From a virus (Duplodnaviria > Heunggongvirae > Uroviricota > Caudoviricetes), in the IMG/VR virus record IMGVR_UViG_2695420676_000012: a DNA stretch of 36,271 bases, one strand, 5' to 3'. The notes below the pieces were generated by a model. That model made no database searches. It worked only from the letters and a program-made list of their open reading frames with translations, and had not been told where the DNA came from. Made by a program: the position numbers and the translations under genes. Shown in pieces: positions 715 to 33,074 of the stretch. The first letter of the stretch is position 1. Each line of letters starts with the position of its first letter.

Positions 715-980
715 ACTGGAGAATCAAACATGTTAGCTTTTATCTCATTCGTGGGAGGTAGTCTCACAACTATGATTAGTCTTTCTTATATTGTCGTTAG
801 TATGGGGTGAGCAATGAAACAATTTCATGATGGCATTTCATCCAAGACATTCAAGAAAGAATATAGCGGATTGTGTATTAACTGGATTGATTTGATTGGT
901 GCGGTTGTGTTTGGTCTGGTAATTAGCATCAATTTTTAACGATATAAATATATCGTAATTCATTCAAAGAGGATTCAATT

Positions 981-1613: not shown

Positions 1614-1653
1614 GCCCCTATCGTTATAATACGCGGTAGGGGCGTTTTTGTTT
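1614..1653 (+). terminator. terminator-like hairpin plus T-run
   Basis: 'gcccctA...Taggggc' inverted repeat followed by 'gtttttgttt'; overlaps the TTG-initiated extension of the recombinase ORF. Confidence 0.4.
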
Positions 1654-1662
1654 GGAAATGGT

Positions 1663-3342
1663 ATGAAAACTAAACTGTATTCGTATATTCGCTTCTCGTC
1701 TATGCGTCAGAATGATGGTTCGAGTTATGAACGACAAATCAGGATGGCGAGAGAGGTTGCGGCAAAGTATGACCTTGAACTGGTAAATGATTATCAGGAT
1801 CTGGGTGTATCTGCGTTTAAGGGTGCTAACTCCAAAACAGGGGCGCTATCTCGTTTCCTTGATGCAATAGGTAGATCCGTTCCTGTTGGTAGCTGGCTAT
1901 TCATCGAAAACTTGGACCGTTTATCCCGTGCCGATATTGTCAGTGCGCAGGAGTTATTCCTTTCAATCATCCGTAGGGGGATAACCATTGTTACTGGCAT
2001 GGATAACAAGATCTACTCGCTGGATACTGTTACCGCTAACCCGATGGACCTGATGTTCTCCATCCTTTTATTCATCCGTGGTAATGAGGAAAGCCAGACT
2101 AAGCGCAATCGTACTAACTCAAGCGCACTGATTAAGATTAAAGCCCATCAAGAAAATCCCCAGAATCCGGCAGTGGCAATCGAGGAAGTTGGAAAGAATA
2201 TGTGGTGGACTGATACCACTTCCGGTTATGTGTTGCCTCATCCTACATACTTCCCTGTTGTTCAGGAGATTGTGGAATTACGGAAGAATGGACGTTCAAC
2301 CGCCGAGATACTGGATCACCTTAACGAGACATATACACCGCCACCAGCGGTTAGTAATAAGAAGCATTCAAAATGGTCACGGGCAATGGTTGAAAGGTTG
2401 TTCCATACCCGCGCTTTGATTGGTATCAAGGAGGTCTCTGTCGATGGTGTTAACTATGAGTTAAAGGATTATTACCCTCGTGTTATTGATGATGCTACGT
2501 TCTATCACCTTAAGAAAAATATTGGTGCTAGAGCATGGAACTTTGGAGACAAGGAAGAAGTTAAACCGATCCCCCTGCTTAGTGGTATTGGCCTATTGAA
2601 ATGTGATCATTGCGGTTGCGCTATGGTTAAAGTGAAGGGAACGAACAAACGTTCTGACCAGTATCGTTATACATGTGATGCGACCCGTTCACGTAGACTT
2701 GATTGCGAGCATCCAAACTGGAGTTTTCGAGGTGATCAATTAGAGAAAGCTGTATTGCAATTGCTGGCTGATAAAATCTGGATTGCTGAGGACAAGGCTA
2801 ATCCGGTTCCGGCGTTGAAAGTACAGGTTGATGAAATATCACGCAAGATTGATAACCTGATTGCCCTTTCTGCTATGACAGGAGCAACGAAGGAGTTAGC
2901 CGATCAGATTACTACCCTCAATAGCGAGCGTGAAACACTCTACAATCAGATCAAGATGGCAGAAGAGGAAATGTATTCTGTGGACTCTCAAGGCTGGGAG
3001 AAGCTCGCAGAATTTGATTTAGAAGATGTTTATAACGAGGAACGACTAAAGGTCCGGTTTAAGATTAAGCAAGCTCTAAAGCGGATCGGGTGTAGCAGGA
3101 TTGACAGGAATAAAAACTTGTTTGTACTGGAATACATCGATGGAAAGACCCAGAGAGTTGTAATAGAAAATTCAAGAGGAACGAGGAAAGGACAAATCTT
3201 TGTCGATTTGAAAACTATCAATGATAGGCAGATTCTGGAGAGTAACGGGCTTGTTTTGCATCCATGTTTAGACATGCTGACAGATAAGAACTGGAAACCA
3301 GAAGAGGAAATACCAGGTCCATTACAGGAATTTGGAATTTAA
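1663..3342 (+). CDS. large serine recombinase (integrase/resolvase family)
   Basis: N-terminal resolvase catalytic motifs 'YIRFSSMRQ' and 'GVSAF...LFIENLDRLSR'; downstream Cys cluster 'CDHCGCAM...YRYTCD...LDCEH' (zinc ribbon) and coiled-coil segment; track ORF opens at 1648 with TTG, first ATG at 1663. Confidence 0.8.
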   Translation: MKTKLYSYIRFSSMRQNDGSSYERQIRMAREVAAKYDLELVNDYQDLGVSAFKGANSKTGALSRFLDAIGRSVPVGSWLFIENLDRLSRADIVSAQELFLSIIRRGITIVTGMDNKIYSLDTVTANPMDLMFSILLFIRGNEESQTKRNRTNSSALIKIKAHQENPQNPAVAIEEVGKNMWWTDTTSGYVLPHPTYFPVVQEIVELRKNGRSTAEILDHLNETYTPPPAVSNKKHSKWSRAMVERLFHTRALIGIKEVSVDGVNYELKDYYPRVIDDATFYHLKKNIGARAWNFGDKEEVKPIPLLSGIGLLKCDHCGCAMVKVKGTNKRSDQYRYTCDATRSRRLDCEHPNWSFRGDQLEKAVLQLLADKIWIAEDKANPVPALKVQVDEISRKIDNLIALSAMTGATKELADQITTLNSERETLYNQIKMAEEEMYSVDSQGWEKLAEFDLEDVYNEERLKVRFKIKQALKRIGCSRIDRNKNLFVLEYIDGKTQRVVIENSRGTRKGQIFVDLKTINDRQILESNGLVLHPCLDMLTDKNWKPEEEIPGPLQEFGI

Positions 3343-3379
3343 GCGGCCTAAATCGACGTATAACGAGCTAAACACTTTA

Positions 3380-3404
3380 AGGGGTACATCTGTACCCCTT
3401 TTTA
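3380..3404 (+). terminator. Rho-independent terminator (also candidate att-core palindrome)
   Basis: 'ggggtaca-tc-tgtacccc' perfect 8-bp inverted repeat followed by 'ttttt', directly 3' of the recombinase gene. Confidence 0.5.
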
Positions 3405-3415
3405 ATTTAATTGTA

Positions 3416-4414
3416 TTAAAGAGCCTCTAAAGGGCTTAAATCGAGTTCTAAGTCTTCCGGTGTTAAATCAGCTAACGGTGCATTCATCCACTGCGATAAA
3501 TCTCGTTCTATGTCTTCATCACTAATGTAGTTGTTCAGATTGATTGCGTTGGTATCATCAAAATACATTGGCTTAGATGGGTTGGTGTGGATGTATTCAT
3601 TGATGAATGATTTAACATCTTTCAGCTTGCTAATCGGTAGCGTTTCTGTGAATCCGCTATTCATTACCTTACGTGGGATTTTCTTGCCCTGAATATTCTT
3701 TTTAATCCCCATTTCTAAATCACCAGCTTTCCATCCAATGTTAAACAAATGTGAGCATTCAAAGGTGATTTTCTCGCTGGTGTGCTTCTGGTGTTCTCTT
3801 ACCCGTTGCATCGGATCTTTGCGAGTGGTAATTCCATATTTGAAAAACTTCTCGCCAACACGAATTAGATAAAAGTGCATAGGGCGCTGTGCAAACTTGT
3901 TTCTGATAACCTGTTTTCTACCATTCTGAATTGATTTAAGTACCCCCCTAACCAAAGGGCATGTTAACCCGCCTTGTCTGCGGTTATTGTGTAAATCACC
4001 TTTCTTGTGAATCTTTCCGTGGCACTTACAACGAAGAATTAGTTTAGTGTCAACACCCTGATAAGGTTCAGCCAGACCTAACACATCCCACCCTATCGGC
4101 TTGTAGAACTTGCGAGCGTTTTCTAAGTGTTCTTCTTCGGTAAATCTAAACTTCTTCTTAGGCGGTGATACTCTATCTTTGCCAGTAAACTGACCAGTTA
4201 GAACATGACTAATACATGGCGTTTTAACCTTTCCGTTAACTTCTATGCAAACTTTGGTGTTCTGGAATGGTTTCTTTACAGGAAGCACAAAACCACTGTA
4301 TAACCATCCATGCGCTTGACAAACTTTAATGATTCTGGTTTCATATTCGACCGGAGGGGTCGCACGTTTGCTTTTTGCGGTAAATTCGATATCCTTTGCT
4401 AAAGTAGTATTCAT
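3416..4414 (-). CDS. GIY-YIG-like nuclease domain protein (candidate free-standing homing endonuclease), 332 aa
   Basis: Central segment 'FYLIRVGEKFFKYGIT...RVREH...ITFECSHLF...LEMGIKKNI' resembles the GIY / YIG / Arg / FECS / Glu spacing of I-TevI-type nucleases; Cys/His-rich N-terminal part; SD GAGGA before ATG. Confidence 0.4.
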   Translation of the reverse strand: MNTTLAKDIEFTAKSKRATPPVEYETRIIKVCQAHGWLYSGFVLPVKKPFQNTKVCIEVNGKVKTPCISHVLTGQFTGKDRVSPPKKKFRFTEEEHLENARKFYKPIGWDVLGLAEPYQGVDTKLILRCKCHGKIHKKGDLHNNRRQGGLTCPLVRGVLKSIQNGRKQVIRNKFAQRPMHFYLIRVGEKFFKYGITTRKDPMQRVREHQKHTSEKITFECSHLFNIGWKAGDLEMGIKKNIQGKKIPRKVMNSGFTETLPISKLKDVKSFINEYIHTNPSKPMYFDDTNAINLNNYISDEDIERDLSQWMNAPLADLTPEDLELDLSPLEAL

Positions 4415-4456
4415 AGTAGTGAATCCTCAATAAAATAATATTCACTACTATTTATA
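4414..4456 (-). promoter_or_regulatory. TATAAATA box plus 11-bp hairpin occluding the RBS/start codon of the 3416-4414 gene
   Basis: Minus-strand 'TTATAAATAgtagtgaat[loop with GAGG]attcactactATG'; perfect 11-bp inverted repeat 4414-4424 / 4440-4450. Confidence 0.45.
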
Positions 4457-4460
4457 AGAA

Positions 4461-4832
4461 TTAATTATTGTAGTTTTGGAAACCAGTAAGATCGCAAAAT
4501 GAATCAGTGTCATGTGCTGGGGAACGATGTTCTGCTTCGTCAGAGAAAATGTTGGCTACCGGAGATTCCACTTTAACTTCCGGTGCTTCTTCAACATCTG
4601 ACTTAACTTCTTCGACCACTGGTTCAACTGCTGGAGATTCTTCTTTTGTTTCTTCAATGACGATCTCAGGTTCTTTCATTGCTTCAACCAGAGACGGATC
4701 AACTTCGTCGAATACAACTTTATCATCTGCGGTATATTTGTCTATAATGAAAAAATGGTCAGAAATATAGCTAACGTCGCCAGCATATTCTAACAAAAAA
4801 GCGCCTCTGGTGGGCGCTTTTGTTTTATCCAT
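4461..4832 (-). CDS. acidic hypothetical protein (E/V/P-rich); start uncertain
   Basis: Track ORF 4461-4862 starts with TTG and overlaps the peptidase gene and a hairpin; first in-frame ATG at 4832; codon usage matches neighbours better than the antisense S/T-rich ORF. Confidence 0.35.
   Translation of the reverse strand: MDKTKAPTRGAFLLEYAGDVSYISDHFFIIDKYTADDKVVFDEVDPSLVEAMKEPEIVIEETKEESPAVEPVVEEVKSDVEEAPEVKVESPVANIFSDEAEHRSPAHDTDSFCDLTGFQNYNN
4800..4827. terminator. bidirectional terminator-like hairpin
   Basis: 'agcgcc-tctggtg-ggcgct' flanked by A-run upstream and 'tttgtttt' downstream, at the 3' end of the peptidase gene. Confidence 0.45.
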
Positions 4833-5178
4833 TCCACCGTGATTTTTTTGATCTGGAATCAATATGCGTAAAGGTTTTATATTTTCCTAAGCCGTATTGA
4901 GTAGGATATTTCCCATCAAGATAAGCATGAACAATATCAGGAGAAATTCCTTTCACCGATATGTCAGCCGCGCGGCCTCGAACGTGATAGCTATTGGCTG
5001 CCCCGCCTACATTCTTGTTATGAGTCGGGCAACGGTTGCCACTGTTAATAATCACTGGTTTACCGAAGTGCTCTCGTACATCCTCAAGAATCACCAGTAA
5101 TTCAGCGTCGATTGTATCATAATCACATTTTCCGCATTTACATTTAAATTCCTTGCGAGAAAAATGCTTACTTAACAT
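4825..5178 (-). CDS. peptidase M15 family zinc peptidase (D-Ala-D-Ala carboxypeptidase-like), probable endolysin
   Basis: 'FSRKEFKCKCGKC...' then 'SGNRCPTHNKNVGGAANSYHVRGRAADI', the hallmark SG(Y/N)R..HN...S.H..G.A.D signature; SD 'AAGGGGGT'. Confidence 0.75.
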   Translation of the reverse strand: MLSKHFSRKEFKCKCGKCDYDTIDAELLVILEDVREHFGKPVIINSGNRCPTHNKNVGGAANSYHVRGRAADISVKGISPDIVHAYLDGKYPTQYGLGKYKTFTHIDSRSKKSRWNG

Positions 5179-5535: not shown

Positions 5536-5573
5536 GTTATACCCCCATAAGTTTCTATGAGGGTATTTATGGA

Positions 5574-11697: not shown

Positions 11698-12257
11698 TAT
11701 ACATTCTCCACTAATTCGAATTTCATCTTGCCAATCTGGGCGATCTTCCAATCGATATTTTCAGTTTTGAGAACAAATTCACCTTCTACGTTCTGATACT
11801 TGATCACCTCACCAGCCAGGACGTTTTGACGCAAGTTAGGGAAGAGTTTCATTTCACCACCTGATTTCACATCTTCGGTGATCGTGTAGATTTTCTTGTG
11901 GTTCTCAAACTGGATGATAGTTCCCGCTTTCAGTGTTCCGGTGAAGTTGGAGAGTCTTACCTTACGCCCACCGCGAGCAGTACCAGCAGCAGCCGTTACC
12001 ATCTGGCGTACATCGCCTGTATATTTTGAAAAGTAAGACAGTGGCACACTAAAAGGACGACCAAAAAGGTGACGTGCTACAAATTCTTTTACTTCGTTAA
12101 TATCCTGAGCCATGAAATTAGCTGTAAATTCTGCTTCATAAAAATGAATACCAGTAAAGCGACGCTGGAACTTACCAGAAATAGATTGCGCCTTGAAGAA
12201 AGGCTGTTTTGATTTAAGAGTAAAATCTGTGATTTTAATATTCTTGGATTTGAACAT
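11697..12257 (-). CDS. minor/distal tail protein (gpM/Dit position), 186 aa
   Basis: First gene after the tape measure; SD 'GGGGG' lies in the 3' arm of the 12263-12302 hairpin. Confidence 0.4.
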   Translation of the reverse strand: MFKSKNIKITDFTLKSKQPFFKAQSISGKFQRRFTGIHFYEAEFTANFMAQDINEVKEFVARHLFGRPFSVPLSYFSKYTGDVRQMVTAAAGTARGGRKVRLSNFTGTLKAGTIIQFENHKKIYTITEDVKSGGEMKLFPNLRQNVLAGEVIKYQNVEGEFVLKTENIDWKIAQIGKMKFELVENV

Positions 12258-12258
12258 A

Positions 12259-12306
12259 GAAAAGCCCCCATAGTTTTATGATTATTTATCACTATGGGGG
12301 CTTTTA
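12259..12306 (-). terminator. intercistronic hairpin (attenuator) between tape-measure and distal tail genes
   Basis: Perfect 11-bp inverted repeat 'agcccccatag / ctatgggggct' with 18-nt loop; on the minus transcript followed by 'UUUUCU' and the ATG; 3' arm contains the SD. Confidence 0.45.
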
Positions 12307-15473: not shown

Positions 15474-15503
15474 AAACAAAAAAGCCACCCCGAAGGATGG
15501 CTA
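15474..15503 (-). terminator. Rho-independent terminator after the major tail protein gene
   Basis: Minus transcript 'agccatcc-UUCG-gggtggcu' followed by 'uuuuuu'. Confidence 0.55.
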
Positions 15504-15510
15504 GATAATA

Positions 15511-15981: not shown

Positions 15982-16035
15982 TATTCTTTTCCTTCTATTT
16001 TAAACAATAGGGCACATACCCGTAATTCTATTTAT

Positions 16036-16338
16036 TTAGCGGTTGCTCAAACGTCTATAACGAAGATGAGCGATCCCCCTATTTGTGCTAACGGTAATTA
16101 CCGCCCCTTGCGGTGCAATACAAGAATGAATCTGTCCCCAATCATGACCCTTATGGCTTCCAGAAACACACAAACCATGAATAAGCAATTCAGAGTCACC
16201 ACCGCCACCACCGGAAGAATGAGCACAGAATGAAATAGTCCCGAAAGCGTCGGCTGTCCAACCGTTAGGAATATCAAACCATCCTTGATTTGCTTTACCC
16301 GCCCTATTCCCCAAAGCGCCATCTACCCAAAATGCCAT
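16036..16338 (-). CDS. small glycine-rich protein, paralog 3 of 3 (100 aa)
   Basis: Shares 'W....FDIPNGW', Gly-run and 'G..WG...V..G..V' with the two upstream paralogs; start overlaps the upstream stop (TAATG). Confidence 0.55.
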   Translation of the reverse strand: MAFWVDGALGNRAGKANQGWFDIPNGWTADAFGTISFCAHSSGGGGGDSELLIHGLCVSGSHKGHDWGQIHSCIAPQGAVITVSTNRGIAHLRYRRLSNR

Positions 16339-16643
16339 TAGTGCATTCTCCTGAATTTAAAATAATGCAAACTACCTTTACCCAATGTAAAGCTAACGGT
16401 AGCACCAGCGCCAACTAAAGAACTAGCGCCCCAACTCCCAGCATCACCAGCATGATGACCTGATTCAATCAATCCATTTACAGCCAATTCAGAATCAAGA
16501 TCACCAGCACCGTTAATGGCTTCCATATGAGCAAAAACAATTCCGCATGAATCAGTAACCCAGCCGTTGGGGATATCAAAATATCCACCATTAGCCCAAA
16601 TACTAATAGCGTTTGACATTCTTTGATTTATCCATCCAGCCAT
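16338..16643 (-). CDS. small glycine-rich protein, paralog 2 of 3 (101 aa)
   Basis: Same conserved motifs (FDIPNGW, ...TVSFTLG...YFKF) as paralog 1. Confidence 0.55.
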   Translation of the reverse strand: MAGWINQRMSNAISIWANGGYFDIPNGWVTDSCGIVFAHMEAINGAGDLDSELAVNGLIESGHHAGDAGSWGASSLVGAGATVSFTLGKGSLHYFKFRRMH

Positions 16644-16645
16644 AA

Positions 16646-16942
16646 TTAAAACTCCATGAATTTAAAATATTCAACACCACCTTCACCCCCTAAACCAAAG
16701 GAGACGGTGCAGCCAGCAGGAACAAACGAATTTATAGTAGATCCCCAATTGGTCCCACCACGACGACGAGCAACGGTCAAACCATCTACGTTAATATGTG
16801 CATCAGACCACCCACCACCAGCATTATGACGCATTACAGCGACACCAGCACGAGCAGTACCATAGCCGTTAGGAATATCAAATACATGCCATTTTAAAGC
16901 ATCGATTTTAGTATTAATTTCACTACTTACCCAATATCCCAT
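16646..16942 (-). CDS. small glycine-rich protein, paralog 1 of 3 (98 aa)
   Basis: Motifs 'FDIPNGY', 'GGGW', 'TVSFGLGGEGGVEYFKF'; SD 'AAGGA' before ATG. Confidence 0.55.
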   Translation of the reverse strand: MGYWVSSEINTKIDALKWHVFDIPNGYGTARAGVAVMRHNAGGGWSDAHINVDGLTVARRRGGTNWGSTINSFVPAGCTVSFGLGGEGGVEYFKFMEF

Positions 16943-16980
16943 ATAAGAATCCTTAGCGGAGATTTCTCCCCGCTTTCCAA

Positions 16981-19900
16981 TTACCCTAATTTAGCTTCAA
17001 TTGCAGCAAGACGTTCACGAAGAAGTTTATTTTCTTCGCTCATTTCTTGGACCGCTTTAATTAAAAGCGCGTTCACTGCGGAGTTTGAAATTGTTAAAAT
17101 TTCTTCTGGGTTATCAAGACCACCAATTTTTGCGGTTTTAACAGCTTCCGGTAATACCTCTTGTAAATCCTGTGCGATAATACCAATCTCATGACCTATA
17201 ACTTCTCGGTCATTAAGAGATTTAACTTTATCGTAGGTTTTAACTTTGAGTTTATTTACCTTATCCACCGCATTTTCTTCGTAATCTTCAACATTAATTT
17301 TCAGACGACCATCGGAACGAATATAAACATCGTTAAAGTTACCATTACCAGGAGAATAGAAAGTACCATCATGATGAAATTCAAACACCGCTTGAGGATG
17401 ACCAGCCGCTGGCGATGCCTCCGCAGATCCAACGCGAATAATTGCTTGCCCCCAATTTTGAGGAACACGACGCATACCAAAATCGACGGCAGTTGTATAC
17501 CCTTGATTGGTGATTAAACTTCTTCCTTTAATAATTGGATAATAGCTATCTGGTCCTACATAACCATGATCGACAAATATCGGCGCTTCTAATCCCCATT
17601 GATCGCCCCAACCTCCAGATTGGCTAGCAGTCCAACGTTCACCATGAACATAGAATCGAACGTTATTGACATGAGTCATTTCGACACCTTTTGGACTTAG
17701 CGCGATATCACCCGCGTTTGTAATATTGATAGCAGCATTAGTAGCATAGCTATAGAACGCTAATCCATTATCAGCACCACCTTTACCGATATACCAGTTG
17801 TTATTATCAGCACAAGTACCCAGCAAATATATAGACGAATCACCCGTTTCGGCATTCATGACGATTGCGTCAGAACCACGATTAACTTTAAGTTTCCCGA
17901 AGAAGGTGTTTTTAATGGTATTATCACCCAATCGTTCAAATTCTGCGAAAAATCCTTTTGAGTCACGAAGACTTAAAACGTTATTTCGACCTGTATTGCT
18001 TGCCCCCCAATGGACGAGTTCCATATAGTCCATAGATTGACGAGAACCAGCTTTAAAGAAAAGGTTGTCTTCAAGACGGGTACTACCATCAATTCCGAGA
18101 TGCAAACAACGAGCGGTTGCAGTACCACCTAAATACAATCCACCGTCCGCAAAATCATAGCTGAATGGTCTGCGATTATTCCAACTACCAAAAGAATCTT
18201 TTAAATCGGTAGTAAGAATATGGAAGCTAGAACCATCATTGCGTAAAATCAAACCATAGTTACCACCTTTGACAGCCAAACGAGCATTTTCAGATAATGC
18301 AACTTCGCTATTCATTACAATTTTCTGGCCTTTACCGCCAGTAATATGCAATTCACCATCTTCAATCAGGTTTATAGAGTTTTGACCGTTATCGTTCCAC
18401 CAAATAAAATCTTTGGTTGTTCCATCACCAAAACCAAACCAACCATTACGAACATCTTGTCCAGTGCGATAATCCATGAAATTAAAATGACTTGATTCGT
18501 TTGGTCCTCGACGAATATCAATACCAGAATTTCCAGTAACACCGCCATCCAATGTTAATTTCTTGACATGTAACCCGGATGTTGCTGTCAGCAATAATTC
18601 CTGATTTGTATCTTCGTATCCAGTAGCAAGACGATATGCGTTATCATCAACTGTCTCATGCCAGATAGTGGCAGGAGCAGAACTACGGAAGCGACGCAAC
18701 ATTTTCTTAGCATTTGTTTGCTGTTCGTTCAAATGCTCAATGTCGTATTGGCCTTGATGGTTTCCAGCAAAATTTAACGTTCCACGGTTGCTAAAGTTAT
18801 TGAACGATGAAATGTTAAGAGCATCAAAAATTTCATCTGCAACAGGTTTTTCACCACCCAGATATTCAGGAGTATCCAACAGGTTTAAAGAAACACCACC
18901 GGAAGAAACTTGATATTCTGCTAAAACAAATCCTGTATGTGCACCGTAGTAAGCGTAAAGATCGTAATTGTCGCCATCGGTTGGAATAGCGCAAAAATGT
19001 TGTTCATGATGCCAAATAGTATAATACGCATTGAATACAACACCTTTCGGGCTATTGTTGCCGCATCGAATCACCAATTCGATAATATTGGCTTGTCCAT
19101 TATGTCCTACGTTATAACCGTTACCACCAACCAAACGGATCTTAGCCGTGCGACCGTGTTGTTGTGGCATTGTCAAAGTGCCTAGTTTAAACCAACCACC
19201 CTCGATACCAAAATTAAGCGTCTTCTGGAACAGTCGGTCAATTTCTGCTTTCGAATATGCGCCAATTTCAGCCGGAGTAGGTTTATCACCTTCATGATAC
19301 ATGCGGTGAGAATATGCCAAATGTCCCAATTCATCATAGCCGTATGTTCTTACCGTATGAACCGGATTAGACCCATAAGTGAACTCAAAACCACGAGCAT
19401 GATTAACGCCGGATGGGTGCGGAACATGCAAGATCATTGCAATATGACCCGCCAGGTCATTCATGCGAAATGCACCAAAGTAATCAAGATTAAGAGCACT
19501 CGGATCATCAAAAGGGTTTGCGGTCTTAGACAGCAAATAGCCATCAGTGCAAGTGTTTACGTGCTTTTTGATGTACTTGCCATCACTTGATCCATCGGCT
19601 GCATCAATACGGCTTTCTAAACGTGCAAGTTCGGAATCAGTGTAAGACTTGTTATTGTCAACTTTGCTATGAATTGCTGAATTTTTGGCTTCAACATCAC
19701 GGGTTAATGCTGCGACGTTATCCGCTGCCTCTTGCTTATTGGCTGCAATCACACCAGTAAGGTTATTGTAGGTGTCAGTTAACTGATTTTCCGCATAGGC
19801 GTGATTTGCTGCGATAGTGCGGTCAGTTTCTGCCTTAATCAAATCAACTTTGTCATTGATTGCTTTGTGATTGCTTACGATGGTTGCATCGGTACGGGAT

Positions 19901-28246: not shown

Positions 28247-28289
28247 GTAATTACCCTCATTACGAAATATGAAGGTATTTATTAAATTG

Positions 28290-28333: not shown

Positions 28334-28936
28334 ATGCTAATTAATCAGCAACAAAGAGATGAATTAGAATTAGCCTTGTCTTGTACCGATCATGAATATC
28401 GTTTGCCAGTAAAACATAAGCACTTAAGGACTGATTACACAACATCCGGTTTTAGCCGTGAGGAAGCGAAAGAGATTTTAATAGAATTTTACCGTGATAA
28501 TGGTTATACAGACGTTCACAACTTCTTTAAGAAGCATAGAACATCACATACAGAGTTTCGGAGAGTCCGAGATTGGTTTGATTTTGATATCAAGCGTTAT
28601 TATCGCATTGATGACGGTCCTATCTATCGGTTGCAGTGGAAGCCGATCCGAGAAGTGTTGAAACAGAAGAGATTGAATCACGCTATTACACGCTATCGTA
28701 ACGAGGCTTTTAAGAAAGGCTATGGTGATACAAGGGAATTGTTTGTAGAACTCGCTAACGTGCGATATAGCCACTATTACAACGATCCTAAGTCCTTCTT
28801 CGAAGTGCTGCGCAAGGTTGATATAAGTCGGGGTACATACTATTCACGGTTGAAGAAGTACGGGATTAAGGCAGAGTTCTTTATGTCGGTTGACGATGGA
28901 GAACTTTTTCCTATAAAATGTAAGTCCTCTAAATAA
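28334..28936 (+). CDS. basic Tyr/Arg-rich protein with C-terminal HTH-like module, 200 aa
   Basis: C-terminus '[25 protein letters not shown]' resembles the two small HTH proteins at 28966 and 32781; SD 'AAGGGGG'. Confidence 0.5.
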
Positions 28937-28965
28937 AGGTGAACATTCACTTTAATTTGGAGAAA

Positions 28966-29196
28966 ATGACTATGACTACTAAAGCTACTCGCGGTCGCCC
29001 TGCCCGTTTTAATCGTGAACAACTGGCAGCGATTGTAAAAGCGTACTATCAAGCACCGAAAGGTAAAGAGAACAAAGAACGGGTATTAAATGAGCATGGC
29101 TTATCTATAGCCCAGCTATACAAATCCCTACATAAAGTTGATTTGAAATTCTTTGTTCAGGTTGACGGTGAAATGGTAGAAGCAACAGGAATTTGA
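28966..29196 (+). CDS. small HTH DNA-binding protein (RP.KF.RE...HTH module), ~76 aa
   Basis: 'GRPARFNREQLAAIVKAYY...HGLSIAQLYKSLHK...VQV'; start at ATG with SD 'GGAGAAA' (track ORF opens with GTG at 28939); paralog of 32781-32960. Confidence 0.5.
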   Translation: MTMTTKATRGRPARFNREQLAAIVKAYYQAPKGKENKERVLNEHGLSIAQLYKSLHKVDLKFFVQVDGEMVEATGI

Positions 29197-30830: not shown

Positions 30831-30876
30831 ATTTTTGTCAATACCCCTTGACAAGACGCCAAAGGGTTGACCTAAC

Positions 30877-31335
30877 TTACAGCATATCTAAGCCTTCATC
30901 GTAACCGTAGAAGCCACCGTGAGAAGAGAAACAGATTGGTGTGTAGTCGTCGTCATCTTCGTCTTGTTCATCTTCTTCTGGGGCTTCCTGAGCGGTTTCT
31001 TTACCATAATCAGCCATAATCTGGTCAAGATCGGCGATCCCATAGTAAGAGCCTAAATCAACGTCATATTCACGAACATCAAAAGGCAGGTCATCACGAA
31101 CAATAATTGCTGGAATATCGTTGTATTGAAGACGACCCTCATCAGTAAAACAGTCGATGATCACAGTAGGACGACCATTTCGTTTTAAAGCGTAGAAAGC
31201 AGTTGAGTAGTTGGAGTCTTCGGAATGACGAATGATGTTATAACCACGATGAGCGAAAACTTCTAGCATATGGAAGTTACCATAGTTTTCAGAGTCCAGA
31301 CCCAGAAGTACGAAAGGAGTTTTAGTATTGATCAT
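30877..31335 (-). CDS. hypothetical protein with strongly acidic C-terminal tract, ~152 aa
   Basis: Start placed at ATG with SD 'AGAGGA' (track ORF extends to 31365); C-terminal 'EEDEQDEDDDDY'. Confidence 0.5.
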   Translation of the reverse strand: MINTKTPFVLLGLDSENYGNFHMLEVFAHRGYNIIRHSEDSNYSTAFYALKRNGRPTVIIDCFTDEGRLQYNDIPAIIVRDDLPFDVREYDVDLGSYYGIADLDQIMADYGKETAQEAPEEDEQDEDDDDYTPICFSSHGGFYGYDEGLDML

Positions 31336-31355: not shown

Positions 31356-31386
31356 AGTGAATCAAGTAAGTTCACTATTATTTATA
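31356..31386 (-). promoter_or_regulatory. TATAAATA box followed by GTGAA/TTCAC hairpin upstream of the 30877-31335 gene
   Basis: Minus-strand 'TTATAAATAatAGTGAActtacttgaTTCACT...AGAGGA...ATG'; same architecture as 4414-4456 and 32508-32537. Confidence 0.4.
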
Positions 31387-31588
31387 AAGAGAAAATTCTT
31401 GTTATTATGAAAGGTGATTGTATTCAGTCGGGCAAAGCCCTCCTTCATGATTTGATTAAATTATGATCAAAACGAAGAAGTATCTTTAGAATATAATAAT
31501 CTTTCTTTTGGAGAAATAATAATCAGGAAGTAATTTAGCAACCGAAGGTTGCAATCCCGAAGGGATACCAATACCTTTCATGATCATT

Positions 31589-32017: not shown

Positions 32018-32216
32018 TTTCAGGGGCAAAAATGAGGGGCAAAAATTAGATTTTCAGGGGCAATTATTGGCATTTCAGGGGCAAAAATGAGGGGCAAAAT
32101 CACTGTTTCCCAGAATTTCAGGGGCAAAAATAGTAGGTTTCAGGGGCAAAAATGGGATAGTAGAATCTTGGGGATTTTATTCGGGGGCAAAAATTCAGAA
32201 TTTCAGGGGCAATTCC
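32018..32216. repeat. direct-repeat (iteron-like) array: 9 copies of (T)TCAGGGGCAA(A)AAT core
   Basis: 'GGGGCAA' at 32023, 32036, 32057, 32078, 32091, 32121, 32143, 32184, 32206; exact 27-nt duplicate 'tttcaggggcaaaaatgaggggcaaaa' at 32018 and 32073; spacings 13/21/21/13/30/22/41/22 nt. Confidence 0.8.
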
Positions 32217-32408
32217 CATCAAATATTTTGATAGAAAATTCTTGTATATTATTTAATCAAAAAATCACCAAAAAGTGGCGTAAGTTAATGATTTAAAAAG
32301 AATTGTCAAAAGGTCTCCGTGCTATAATAGGTTATAAAGGTTGATAATCCTGATCTACAATTTTCAAACAAAAATTTTGATAGTCATTTCTCGCTTAGGT
32401 CAAGTGCA

Positions 32409-32437
32409 TTGACAACTGTCAAGGATTATTTTATACT
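32409..32437 (+). promoter_or_regulatory. consensus sigma70 promoter with palindromic -35 (TTGACA-AC-TGTCAA)
   Basis: 'TTGACA' (32409-32414), 17-nt spacer, 'TATACT' (32432-32437); -35 lies in a perfect inverted repeat. Confidence 0.55.
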
Positions 32438-32507: not shown

Positions 32508-32537
32508 TATAAATACATGTGTGAAATGATTGTTCAC
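32508..32537 (+). promoter_or_regulatory. TATAAATA box followed by GTGAA/TTCAC hairpin
   Basis: 'TATAAATA' 32508-32515, hairpin 'gtgaa-atgattg-ttcac' 32521-32537. Confidence 0.4.
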
Positions 32538-32707: not shown

Positions 32708-32747
32708 TATAAATACAAGTGTTCAGAGCGAAATGCTCTTTTTTTAA
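32708..32747 (+). promoter_or_regulatory. TATAAATA box followed by hairpin plus T7 run (attenuator-like) before the 32781 gene
   Basis: 'TATAAATA' 32708-32715; 'agagc-gaaat-gctct' 32725-32739; 'ttttttt' 32740-32746. Confidence 0.4.
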
Positions 32748-32780: not shown

Positions 32781-32960
32781 ATGGCTAGACCTGTTAAGTT
32801 CACTCGTGAAATGATTGTTGATATTGCTAAACGCTTTTACAGCGACACTGAGCGAGGCGGGGAAAACTTCTTTAAGAAGGAAGGAATTGATAGAAGCGGA
32901 TTCTACAAGCTAATGAAGAAATACGAAATTCAGGTAAAGATTAACGTTCAAGTTTGTTAA
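32781..32960 (+). CDS. small HTH DNA-binding protein, paralog of 28966-29196 (~59 aa)
   Basis: 'ARPVKFTREMIVDIAKRFY...GIDRSGFYKLMKKYEIQVKINVQV'; start at ATG with SD 'GAGGA' (track ORF opens with GTG at 32766). Confidence 0.5.
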   Translation: MARPVKFTREMIVDIAKRFYSDTERGGENFFKKEGIDRSGFYKLMKKYEIQVKINVQVC

Positions 32961-33074
32961 TCCACTTTCACTGAGAATTATATGATGGCTTTAAAAAAGA
33001 AAAAGCCTCCCTTGTTGCAGCAAAGGAGGCTTGAAATGAACAATTAAAACTAACTTTCCACAGGAGTATTTATA

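Follow-up and report, generated by a model that had tools for sequence, protein, structure and literature searches.

In T4, the long transcripts of genes e, soc, 49 and I-TevI fold an inhibitory helix, and the late transcripts, which start within that helix, are translated (PMC3014915, PMC2988022). The helix of gene e reduces lysozyme synthesis about 100-fold (PMC3014915), and hairpin control is also found in I-TevII, I-TevIII, segB and the mobE gene of Aeh1 (McPheeters 1986; Gott 1988; reviews PMC3014915, PMC2988022). The T4-like late promoter is a TATAAATA box at positions -13 to -6, with A or T at -13 in phages of the RB49 type and CTAAATA in Aeh1 (PMC1524935), and a late-gene motif TggTAaAAtA is present in rV5, the genome of which lacks homologues of gp55, gp33 and gp45 (PMC3606486). 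The leader of an open reading frame of 332 codons (ORF332) in the IMG/VR virus record IMGVR_UViG_2695420676_000012, of which the whole 36,271-nt stretch is called the window here, combines such a box with a hairpin at the start codon, and on balance this locus is probably a translational gate of the T4 gene e/I-TevI type residing in a temperate Escherichia coli prophage. Control by a transcription start inside a hairpin over the ribosome-binding site (RBS) has hitherto been a speciality of the T4 family, tied to gp55. The type of mechanism is therefore known already; what is new is its four-fold use in a temperate, non-T4 prophage without T4 late factors, together with a T4-late-type box that occurs genome-wide and in intergenic DNA only.

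The minus strand at the locus reads ...TAATTC-TTATAAATA-GTAGTGAAT-ATTATTTTATTGAGG-ATTCACTAC-TATG-AAT (coordinates of the parts are given in Table 1). An earlier note on this DNA had reported a TATAAATA box running into a perfect 11-bp stem, and had placed the transcription start within the 5' arm: the box is present, the predicted start 6 nt downstream of it does fall within the arm by geometry, and the stem is indeed perfect, with a length of 12 bp. The note had also put the Shine-Dalgarno (SD) sequence in the stem, which does not hold for this copy, as GAGG, the sole SD-like sequence of the leader, lies in the loop, and the paired nucleotides are the 10-nt spacer between SD and AUG and the AU of the AUG itself. 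The RNA fold of the leader has a predicted energy of -15.2 kcal/mol (z = -3.75 versus dinucleotide shuffles, with 1 of 200 shuffles as stable), and the hairpin ranks third in length among the inverted repeats of the window, the other long ones being mostly GC-rich and of the terminator type. Modelled with 70 nt of upstream context, the accessibility of the ORF332 RBS is 0.19, the joint lowest among 42 gene starts; a transcript begun at G4443 would retain 4 nt of the 12-nt 5' arm, and the modelled accessibility rises to 0.49. The hairpin was also considered as an intrinsic terminator and rejected, because a U tract is absent on the minus strand and the terminator of the plus-strand recombinase gene is located at 3379-3400. 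A search for Rfam families and tRNAs found none.

ORF332 has 13 full-length homologues with 48-99% identity, as well as a 394-aa paralogue family at 36-38% identity. Their leaders share the pattern (T/A/C)(A/T)TAAATA-(G/A)TA(G/A)TG, followed by a loop with (G)AGG and then by CTA(C/T)TATG; the box takes the forms AATAAATA, TAATAAATA or CTAAATA in relatives, with a family consensus of (T/A)ATAAATA and CTAAATA in two lineages. The hairpin forms in 12 of 13 leaders over this whole range of protein identity, and the leader of a 37%-identical paralogue is almost identical. In a gap-free alignment with the arms anchored at the box and the ATG and the variable loops trimmed to 8 nt, 87% of cells hold standard pairs, compared with 20-60% in slid registers, and the covariation score is 0.219 versus 0.140 ± 0.021 in shuffles (reached by 0 of 500), a significance that these shuffle controls overstate owing to kinship among the relatives. 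Stem position 4 is a G-C pair in seven sequences, A-U in four, G-U in one and a mismatch in one; the stem alignment as a whole has five G-U cells, which favour an RNA helix on the minus strand over a DNA dyad. In three relatives (L011, L012 and L039) the GG of the SD is base-paired to a CC atop the 5' arm, and the SD is thus directly sequestered there. As judged from these alignments, the hairpin is under selection and evolutionarily conserved. Two independent Logan assemblies (L041 and L042) end exactly 37 nt upstream of the ORF332 start, within the box/hairpin leader, a break that would fit the leader being repeated in those genomes.

In the gate as we conceive it, mRNA entering from upstream would fold the 12-bp hairpin, with the spacer and the first two bases of the AUG paired and the SD at the edge of the loop, so that ribosomes would load poorly. 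The overlapping TATAAATA box would act as a promoter without a -35 element, and transcripts initiated about 6 nt after it (G4443) would retain only GAAU of the 5' arm, could form no stem and would be translated. During the lytic cycle of the prophage, the box would most likely be read by host RNA polymerase with a prophage-encoded specificity factor or activator. L013, L014 and L016, in which the gene upstream of the ORF332 homologue is divergent and the spacer measures 71-154 nt, still have the box and hairpin. A dedicated promoter for ORF332 is thus required within that spacer, where the box is the only element common to the other leaders.

The ORF332 box is one copy of a putative prophage-wide ATAAATA promoter class, not a stray T4 remnant. 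The full TATAAATA sequence occurs 7 times in the window versus 2.8 expected, and all 13 occurrences of the core ATAAATA are intergenic, with none in coding sequences (CDS), although intergenic DNA makes up 11.5% of the window by a gene list that follows PGAP calls in relatives; 7-mers of the same composition number 102 intergenic versus 183 coding. Shuffling of intergenic segments (500 times) gives 3.0 ± 1.75 copies with a maximum of 9, versus the 13 observed. Within genes, where no copy is observed on either strand, shuffling of the codon order leads to an expectation of 2.5 sense and 4.9 antisense copies; the absence of sense copies is not rare (41 of 500 shuffles), and that of antisense copies is reached in only 4 of 500. 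Depletion on both CDS strands points to a signal at the DNA level. Boxes head most transcription units of the prophage, 11 of the 13 precede a same-strand start codon by 25-70 nt, and they hold their positions in relatives although the flanks diverge. Around the 13 boxes no -35 hexamer was found, nor any k-mer of at least 6 nt common to more than 4 of the 13 upstream regions, nor a shared activator site. Downstream of the box, 9 of the 13 copies have T at +5 and 12 have a purine at +6, a Y-1/R+1 signature that sits exactly at the expected T4-type late start because the T4 box spans -13 to -6. Two canonical sigma70 promoters with 11 of 12 matches, TTGACA-17-TATACT (32409-32437, plus strand) and TTGACA-17-TATGAT (30841-30813, minus strand), form a separate class, located in the control region, from which early regulators could be expressed.

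By modelling of long transcripts against those begun 6 nt downstream of each box, four of the 13 boxes prove to be fused to an occluded RBS that opens in the box-started transcript: those at 4449, 5564, 12283 and 28276. At the 5564 site, relatives keep the box, stem and ATG with three unrelated stems (CCCTCATA/TATGGGGG, CTTCTATG/CATAGAAG and GTATGAA/TTCATAC). The earlier note had seen the same architecture recurring at 31356-31386 and 32508-32537. The boxes there are real and conserved, that at 31379-31386 being invariant in 15 IMG/VR relatives; the hairpins, of 6 and 5 bp, are unconserved and off the RBS, the former lying upstream of the SD and leaving the RBS free.

The genome that carries these boxes is a temperate siphovirus-type E. 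coli prophage, not a T4-like genome. By megablast, no cultured phage covers the window, and the closest cultured terminase is 43% identical; of 5426 complete E. coli genomes, 62 contain the prophage, in every case on the chromosome, and a plasmid collection gave no match to the window. Among the strains with the prophage are PEC41, ETEC1739 and UTME-9, at 95-98% identity. In PEC41 the first position of the window is about 40 nt from a truncated ycdX, and in L3Cip3 its last base adjoins a truncated hicB, boundaries from which the 36.3 kb are essentially the whole prophage. There is a large serine recombinase gene at 1648-3342, and a minus-strand block runs from a terminase of the lambda gpA type through portal, capsid, tape measure and tail tip to an M15 endolysin; the remaining 5 kb or so hold small genes and non-coding DNA. 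Of the T4-type control proposed in the earlier note, then, the architecture of e, soc, 49 and I-TevI is borne out, and it stands in a genome that is not T4-like and has no gp55, gp33 or gp45. The gp55-like late sigma factor for which that note suggested a search did not emerge: tblastn of all 43 ORFs against the whole of Phi1 gave no match to genes 55, 33 or 45; a 24-member gp55 profile compared with all ORFs reached an hhalign probability of at most 1.6% and nothing by hmmsearch --max; and six-frame scans for gp55, gp33 and gp45 gave E values above 0.2, with nothing from PHROGs or Pfam.

There is about an even chance that the boxes are read by a prophage-encoded factor or activator not yet recognised. 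Such a reader is favoured because an otherwise complete temperate phage puts its terminase behind a gate, because canonical early promoters could drive regulators, and because rV5 has a T4-late-like motif without gp55, gp33 and gp45 (PMC3606486). Candidate readers are ORF110, which lies downstream of the sigma70 promoter at 30841, the Rha-like protein, ORF152 with its conserved C-terminal tail, and three helix-turn-helix paralogues. Several points weigh against the start-inside-hairpin gate. No factor able to read the box was found in the element; we infer the promoter activity and start site of the box, as well as its timing; and the box can be read as TATAAA and could act as a weak sigma70 -10 element. 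The SD in the loop of this copy is still potentially reachable, the SD-AUG spacing of 10 nt is long, and only 4 of the 13 boxes are joined to RBS-occluding stems. Among the relatives, L014 prefers another fold and the hairpin of L016 is weak (-3.3 kcal/mol), and the kinship mentioned above tempers the covariation statistics. Finally, the genes co-oriented with ORF332 upstream are separated from it by the terminator-type hairpin at 4791-4827, which should cut read-through and so weakens the need for a gate; since read-through into ORF332 is probably limited already, the gate would act on residual long transcripts. A search of the accessible literature for TATAAATA promoters in prophages, or for satellites of T4-like phages, returned nothing relevant.

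A rather unlikely alternative is that the boxes are gp55-type late promoters read in trans by the gp55, gp33 and gp45 of a superinfecting T4-like phage (Krischvirus), so that ORF332, perhaps with the whole prophage, would be activated in the late phase of that infection, with defence, marker exclusion or self-mobilisation as possible results. The core of the box equals the T4-like late consensus, its variants AATAAATA and CTAAATA being those of RB49-type phages and Aeh1, and the boxes lack a -35 element and have a purine at +6. In Phi1, inh is preceded by AATAAATA and uvsW by TATAAATA, and the density of ATAAATA in the prophage (13 in 36 kb) is twice that of Phi1 (31 in 164 kb). A virion operon with many promoter-terminator units is a hallmark of T4-like phages and untypical of temperate siphoviruses, and no factor of its own could be recognised in the element.

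The exchange of DNA with Krischvirus (RB49, Phi1, JSE), in patches of 74-99% identity overall, has been recent and repeated, and lends this alternative further support. A truncated Inh-like ORF lies upstream of ORF332, and positions 4478-4735 match an internal segment of Krischvirus inh at 97.7-98.4% identity, which stops 21 nt short of the box. The distal tail-fibre gene and three small ORFs downstream of it (16020-19528) are up to 95-99% identical to Krischvirus (KFS-EC, G37-3), sequence identity that indicates a very recent exchange between the temperate prophage and virulent T4-like phages. Sixty-five nucleotides upstream of the virion-block box is a 75-nt element (31451-31525), 75-84% identical to an intergenic repeat of Krischvirus with four copies in Phi1 (copies at Phi1 98870-99093, 62512-62585 and 149926-150000; others at L004 1501-1575 and about 1650-1720); it may be part of the PeSL promoter/stem-loop cassettes known from RB49 and phi1 (PMC2839356). 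The ORFs at 1-273 and 286-672 are 43-46% identical to Phi1 ORF194 and ORF190. In T4-like genomes inh and uvsW are divergent neighbours. Directly upstream of ORF332, relatives have either an Inh-like gene (48-68% amino acid identity to residues 49-190 of Phi1 Inh) or, on the opposite strand, a UvsW homologue (65-84% identity), which is full-length in Salmonella and some E. coli members and an N-terminal fragment in others; the spacer of L013 is 71 nt, equal to that of Phi1. A full-length helicase gene of the UvsW type, encoding a protein 73% identical to Phi1 UvsW, is divergent from the ORF332 homologue in L014 and L015 (1772-3277) and in L056 (786-2285). Two short near-exact matches to Phi1 (15474-15507, 97% to 100296-100328 just downstream of hoc; 1348-1384, 92% to 158658-158694) both fall in intergenic or gene-boundary DNA of the prophage.

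Activation in trans would account for the lack of a late factor, for a box density above that of Phi1 and for the T4-like patches beside the nuclease gene. Against it, the large terminase and other essential virion genes stand behind boxes or gates, so that a complete, integrase-bearing prophage would need a helper, and this dependence would extend to the prophage in the 62 E. coli genomes, in Salmonella and in Proteus. Relatives of ORF332 have turned up in IMG/VR on prophage-size contigs only, never on T4-size ones, and rV5 demonstrates that such motifs can exist without gp55. If it were true, the element would sense the late phase of the invader, and could cut or recombine with it at inh-uvsW, or express its own virion genes. 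Escherichia phage DCP80 (PQ671644.1) was considered as a natural T4/siphovirus hybrid and rejected as a scrambled assembly, and hence is not used as evidence. Its record (Straboviridae/Gaprivervirus) contains rIIA three times, exonuclease genes twice, and truncated terminase and gp34 genes (L043, L044, L047); its first 22 kb comprise a siphovirus-type virion module syntenic with the prophage at 28-49% amino acid identity, with 12 sense and 0 antisense copies of ATAAATA.

It is also unlikely that the hairpin is a constitutive attenuator, present in all ORF332 transcripts and dampening a toxic nuclease or stabilising the 5' end, with sigma70 alone at work and with the box a weak -10-like element or part of an AT-rich leader, transcription starting upstream of the stem. 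TATAAA does fit 5 of the 6 positions of the -10 hexamer, the box at 31379 has a sigma70-like arrangement with 9 of 12 matches, the SD in the loop leaves some translation possible, and dampening alone could select for a hairpin. However, the ORF332 box has neither a -35 hexamer nor a TG extension, and sigma70-like sites are fewer in the window than in shuffles. An AT-rich leader cannot explain the invariance of ATAAATA, its confinement to intergenic DNA or its depletion on both CDS strands, and at four independent sites the box is so placed that initiation 6 nt downstream would occur within the 5' arm or past it.

A DNA-level operator, in which the inverted repeat would be a protein-binding palindrome over the promoter, for instance for autorepression by the nuclease, is very improbable. 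I-TevI does repress its own late promoter through an overlapping operator (PMC2988022), and a dyad-symmetric binding site would also show covariation, but in a dyad, or on the opposite strand, the five G-U cells would become C-A mismatches, the arms are split by loops of variable length (10-15 nt), equivalent gates in relatives have unrelated stem sequences, and the last two bases of the 3' arm are invariably the AU of the AUG. Translational coupling, by which ribosomes finishing the Inh-like ORF would melt the stem and ORF332 would depend on translation of that ORF, is highly improbable. In its favour, the stop codon in the window is 9 nt from the 5' arm. In relatives it is some 27-38 nt away, and coupling was rejected on the order of genes in L013, L014 and L016, with the upstream gene on the other strand and the box and hairpin kept.

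The coordinates of the gates, boxes and neighbouring features are collected in Table 1. ORF152 (30877-31335, minus strand), the first gene behind the most conserved box, encodes a variable acidic linker followed by a conserved C-terminal GFYGYDEGL(D/E)ML, a peptide kept even in a 65%-identical relative; this tail might serve in docking, perhaps to a clamp or to polymerase. The plus-strand box at 32709 has a terminator-like hairpin and T run within 10 nt (32709-32739 in all), with equivalent sites in L019-L034 and a stem that covaries in relatives (AGAGC/GCTCT, GAGCG/CGCTC); this order of promoter and terminator suggests attenuation or antitermination of the rightward genes. About 35 nt after the minus-strand box at 33067-33073 is a strong terminator (33003-33032), with no ORF between them and no Rfam match, and 33003-33073 could encode a small RNA of about 60 nt.

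Table 1. Positions in the window of the ORF332 leader, the other gates, the remaining boxes and adjacent features
Feature	Position	Strand	Description
ORF332, 332 aa	3416-4414	-	CapR-like N-terminal domains and C-terminal GIY-YIG-fold (T5orf172/MUG113-like) domain
TATAAATA box	4449-4456	-	final 3 nt shared with the beginning of the hairpin 5' arm
5' arm ATAGTAGTGAAT	4440-4451	-	predicted start G4443 (T4 geometry, box at -13 to -6) inside the arm
Loop ATTATTTTATTGAGG, 15 nt	4425-4439	-	SD GAGG at 4425-4428, the 3' end of the loop
3' arm ATTCACTACTAT	4413-4424	-	spans the spacer between SD and AUG, plus A and U of the start codon (ATG 4414-4412)
Truncated Inh-like ORF	4461-4862	-	upstream of ORF332; stop codon 4461-4463
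Terminator-type hairpin	4791-4827		GC-rich, T runs on both sides (bidirectional); between endolysin gene and Inh-like patch
Second gate	5539-5570	-	box 5564-5570 overlaps 12-bp stem; SD GGGGG in 3' arm; 115-aa ORF, ATG 5535; accessibility 0.20 to 0.59
Third gate	12260-12305	-	box 12283-12289 in loop of perfect 15-bp stem; 3' arm holds SD of ORF starting at 12257; accessibility 0.12 to 0.47
Fourth gate	28247-28282	-	box 28276-28282 abuts 7-9 bp stem; SD GAGGG in 3' arm; large terminase, ATG 28246; accessibility 0.32 to 0.55
Box at head of virion block	31379-31386	-	ORF152, ATG 31335; extended motif TTCTCnTTATAAATA(A/C)TAGTG common with the ORF332 box
Box in 1.3-kb non-coding control region	32508-32515	+	position conserved, 5-bp hairpin not; no ORF for about 250 nt
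ATAAATA box	944-950	+	intergenic, 26-70 nt upstream of same-strand start
ATAAATA boxes	28301, 32709, 35928	+	intergenic, each 26-70 nt upstream of same-strand start
ATAAATA boxes	30405, 16029	-	intergenic, each 26-70 nt upstream of same-strand start
ATAAATA box	33067	-	intergenic, not within 26-70 nt of same-strand start

The earlier note's description of the gated protein as a GIY-YIG-like endonuclease is supported at the fold level. The C-terminal half of ORF332 matches an endonuclease family of PHROGs (E = 3e-20), and the protein conforms to the GIY-YIG alpha/beta fold. Y182, G194, R204 and E257 are invariant across the family. Pfam-type matches in the family are to CapR (14 of 16), T5orf172 (6 of 16) and MUG113 (2 of 16), those to T5orf172 and MUG113 being weak (E of 1e-4 or weaker), and the window protein itself matches CapR alone, below the cut-off; a sequence search of the PDB with the ORF332 profile gave no match. 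All homologues that could be placed are located between the lysis genes and the serine recombinase gene, in E. coli, Salmonella and Proteus prophages of one family, and the one absence examined (DEC5A) is due to a deletion by which the Inh-like ORF became fused with the 12 terminal codons of ORF332. IMG/VR relatives occur solely on prophage-type contigs of 18-36 kb, never on contigs of T4 size, and phage genomes gave only partial matches of 24-35% in 8 phage records. A recently imported mobile homing cassette was rejected on account of the fixed position, the one examined loss, which is by deletion, and the failure to find copies on T4-size contigs: ORF332 behaves as a resident gene. Between the endolysin and Inh-like genes of relatives there are extra nuclease genes of the T5orf172, GIY-YIG or CapR type, mostly on the opposite strand (L010 2878-3474, L011 2941-3525, L039 2813-3400, L040 2878-3459, L046 1886-2467, L013 1836-2873), and this corner of the prophage accumulates nuclease genes.

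Two further features of the prophage lie apart from the boxes. In the 1.3-kb non-coding region, 32022-32194 (plus strand) contains eight (A/G)GGGGCAA(A/T)(A/T)(A/T)T repeats with 0-1 mismatch on one strand (11 matches window-wide versus 1.8 expected), and a more diverged copy can be seen by eye at about 32205; the repeats (32022-32220) look like the iterons of a replication origin or another protein-binding array. Three small basic proteins encoded on the plus strand (28334-28936, 28939-29196 and 32781-32960) have in common the motif RPxKFxRE...FFKKxGIxRxxFYxLxKKYxI, which looks like a helix-turn-helix, and are candidate regulators of the prophage; a family search with the three gave no significant E values.

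The locus matters in a different way according to how the boxes are read. One option is a factor that gives host RNA polymerase a T4-late-like specificity, which, if true, would be a new transcription factor to find. The other is that the late machinery of invading T4-like phages switches on a resident prophage, which, if true, would be a new form of prophage-phage interplay, with a bearing on phage therapy with Krischvirus-type phages and on the flow of tail-fibre genes between virulent and temperate phages.

In comparison with known systems, the prophage resembles temperate phages of the lambdoid, P2 and Mu types in its lifestyle and in the siphovirus-type order of its virion genes, but their single late operon, controlled by Q antitermination or by Ogr or C activators, is replaced by a virion block split into box-headed, terminator-separated units, and no activator-binding motif is common to the regions upstream of the boxes. 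With rV5 it shares a T4-late-like motif upstream of late genes and a genome without gp55, gp33 and gp45; rV5 differs in being a large virulent myovirus with a looser motif, for which no hairpin gates have been described. The boxes are like gp55-dependent late promoters in that the 7-nt core is identical and the variants tolerated at its first two positions agree, and also in the missing -35 element, the purine at the sixth nucleotide, the leaders of 25-70 nt and the frequent location just after terminators, and unlike them in that no cognate sigma factor or co-activator was found in the prophage. The closest likeness in architecture is to T4 e, soc, 49 and I-TevI: a TATAAATA-type box is immediately upstream of or within a stem that pairs the SD and/or the AUG, the late start would by geometry fall within the stem, and only long transcripts would be blocked; as with I-TevI and the seg genes, the gated ORF332 encodes a GIY-YIG-type nuclease. 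The differences are that the prophage is temperate, of the siphovirus type and without gp55, gp33 and gp45, that the SD of this copy lies in the loop, that ORF332 is resident at a fixed position, neither intron-encoded nor demonstrably mobile, and that the prophage gates its terminase and other genes of the virion block as well.

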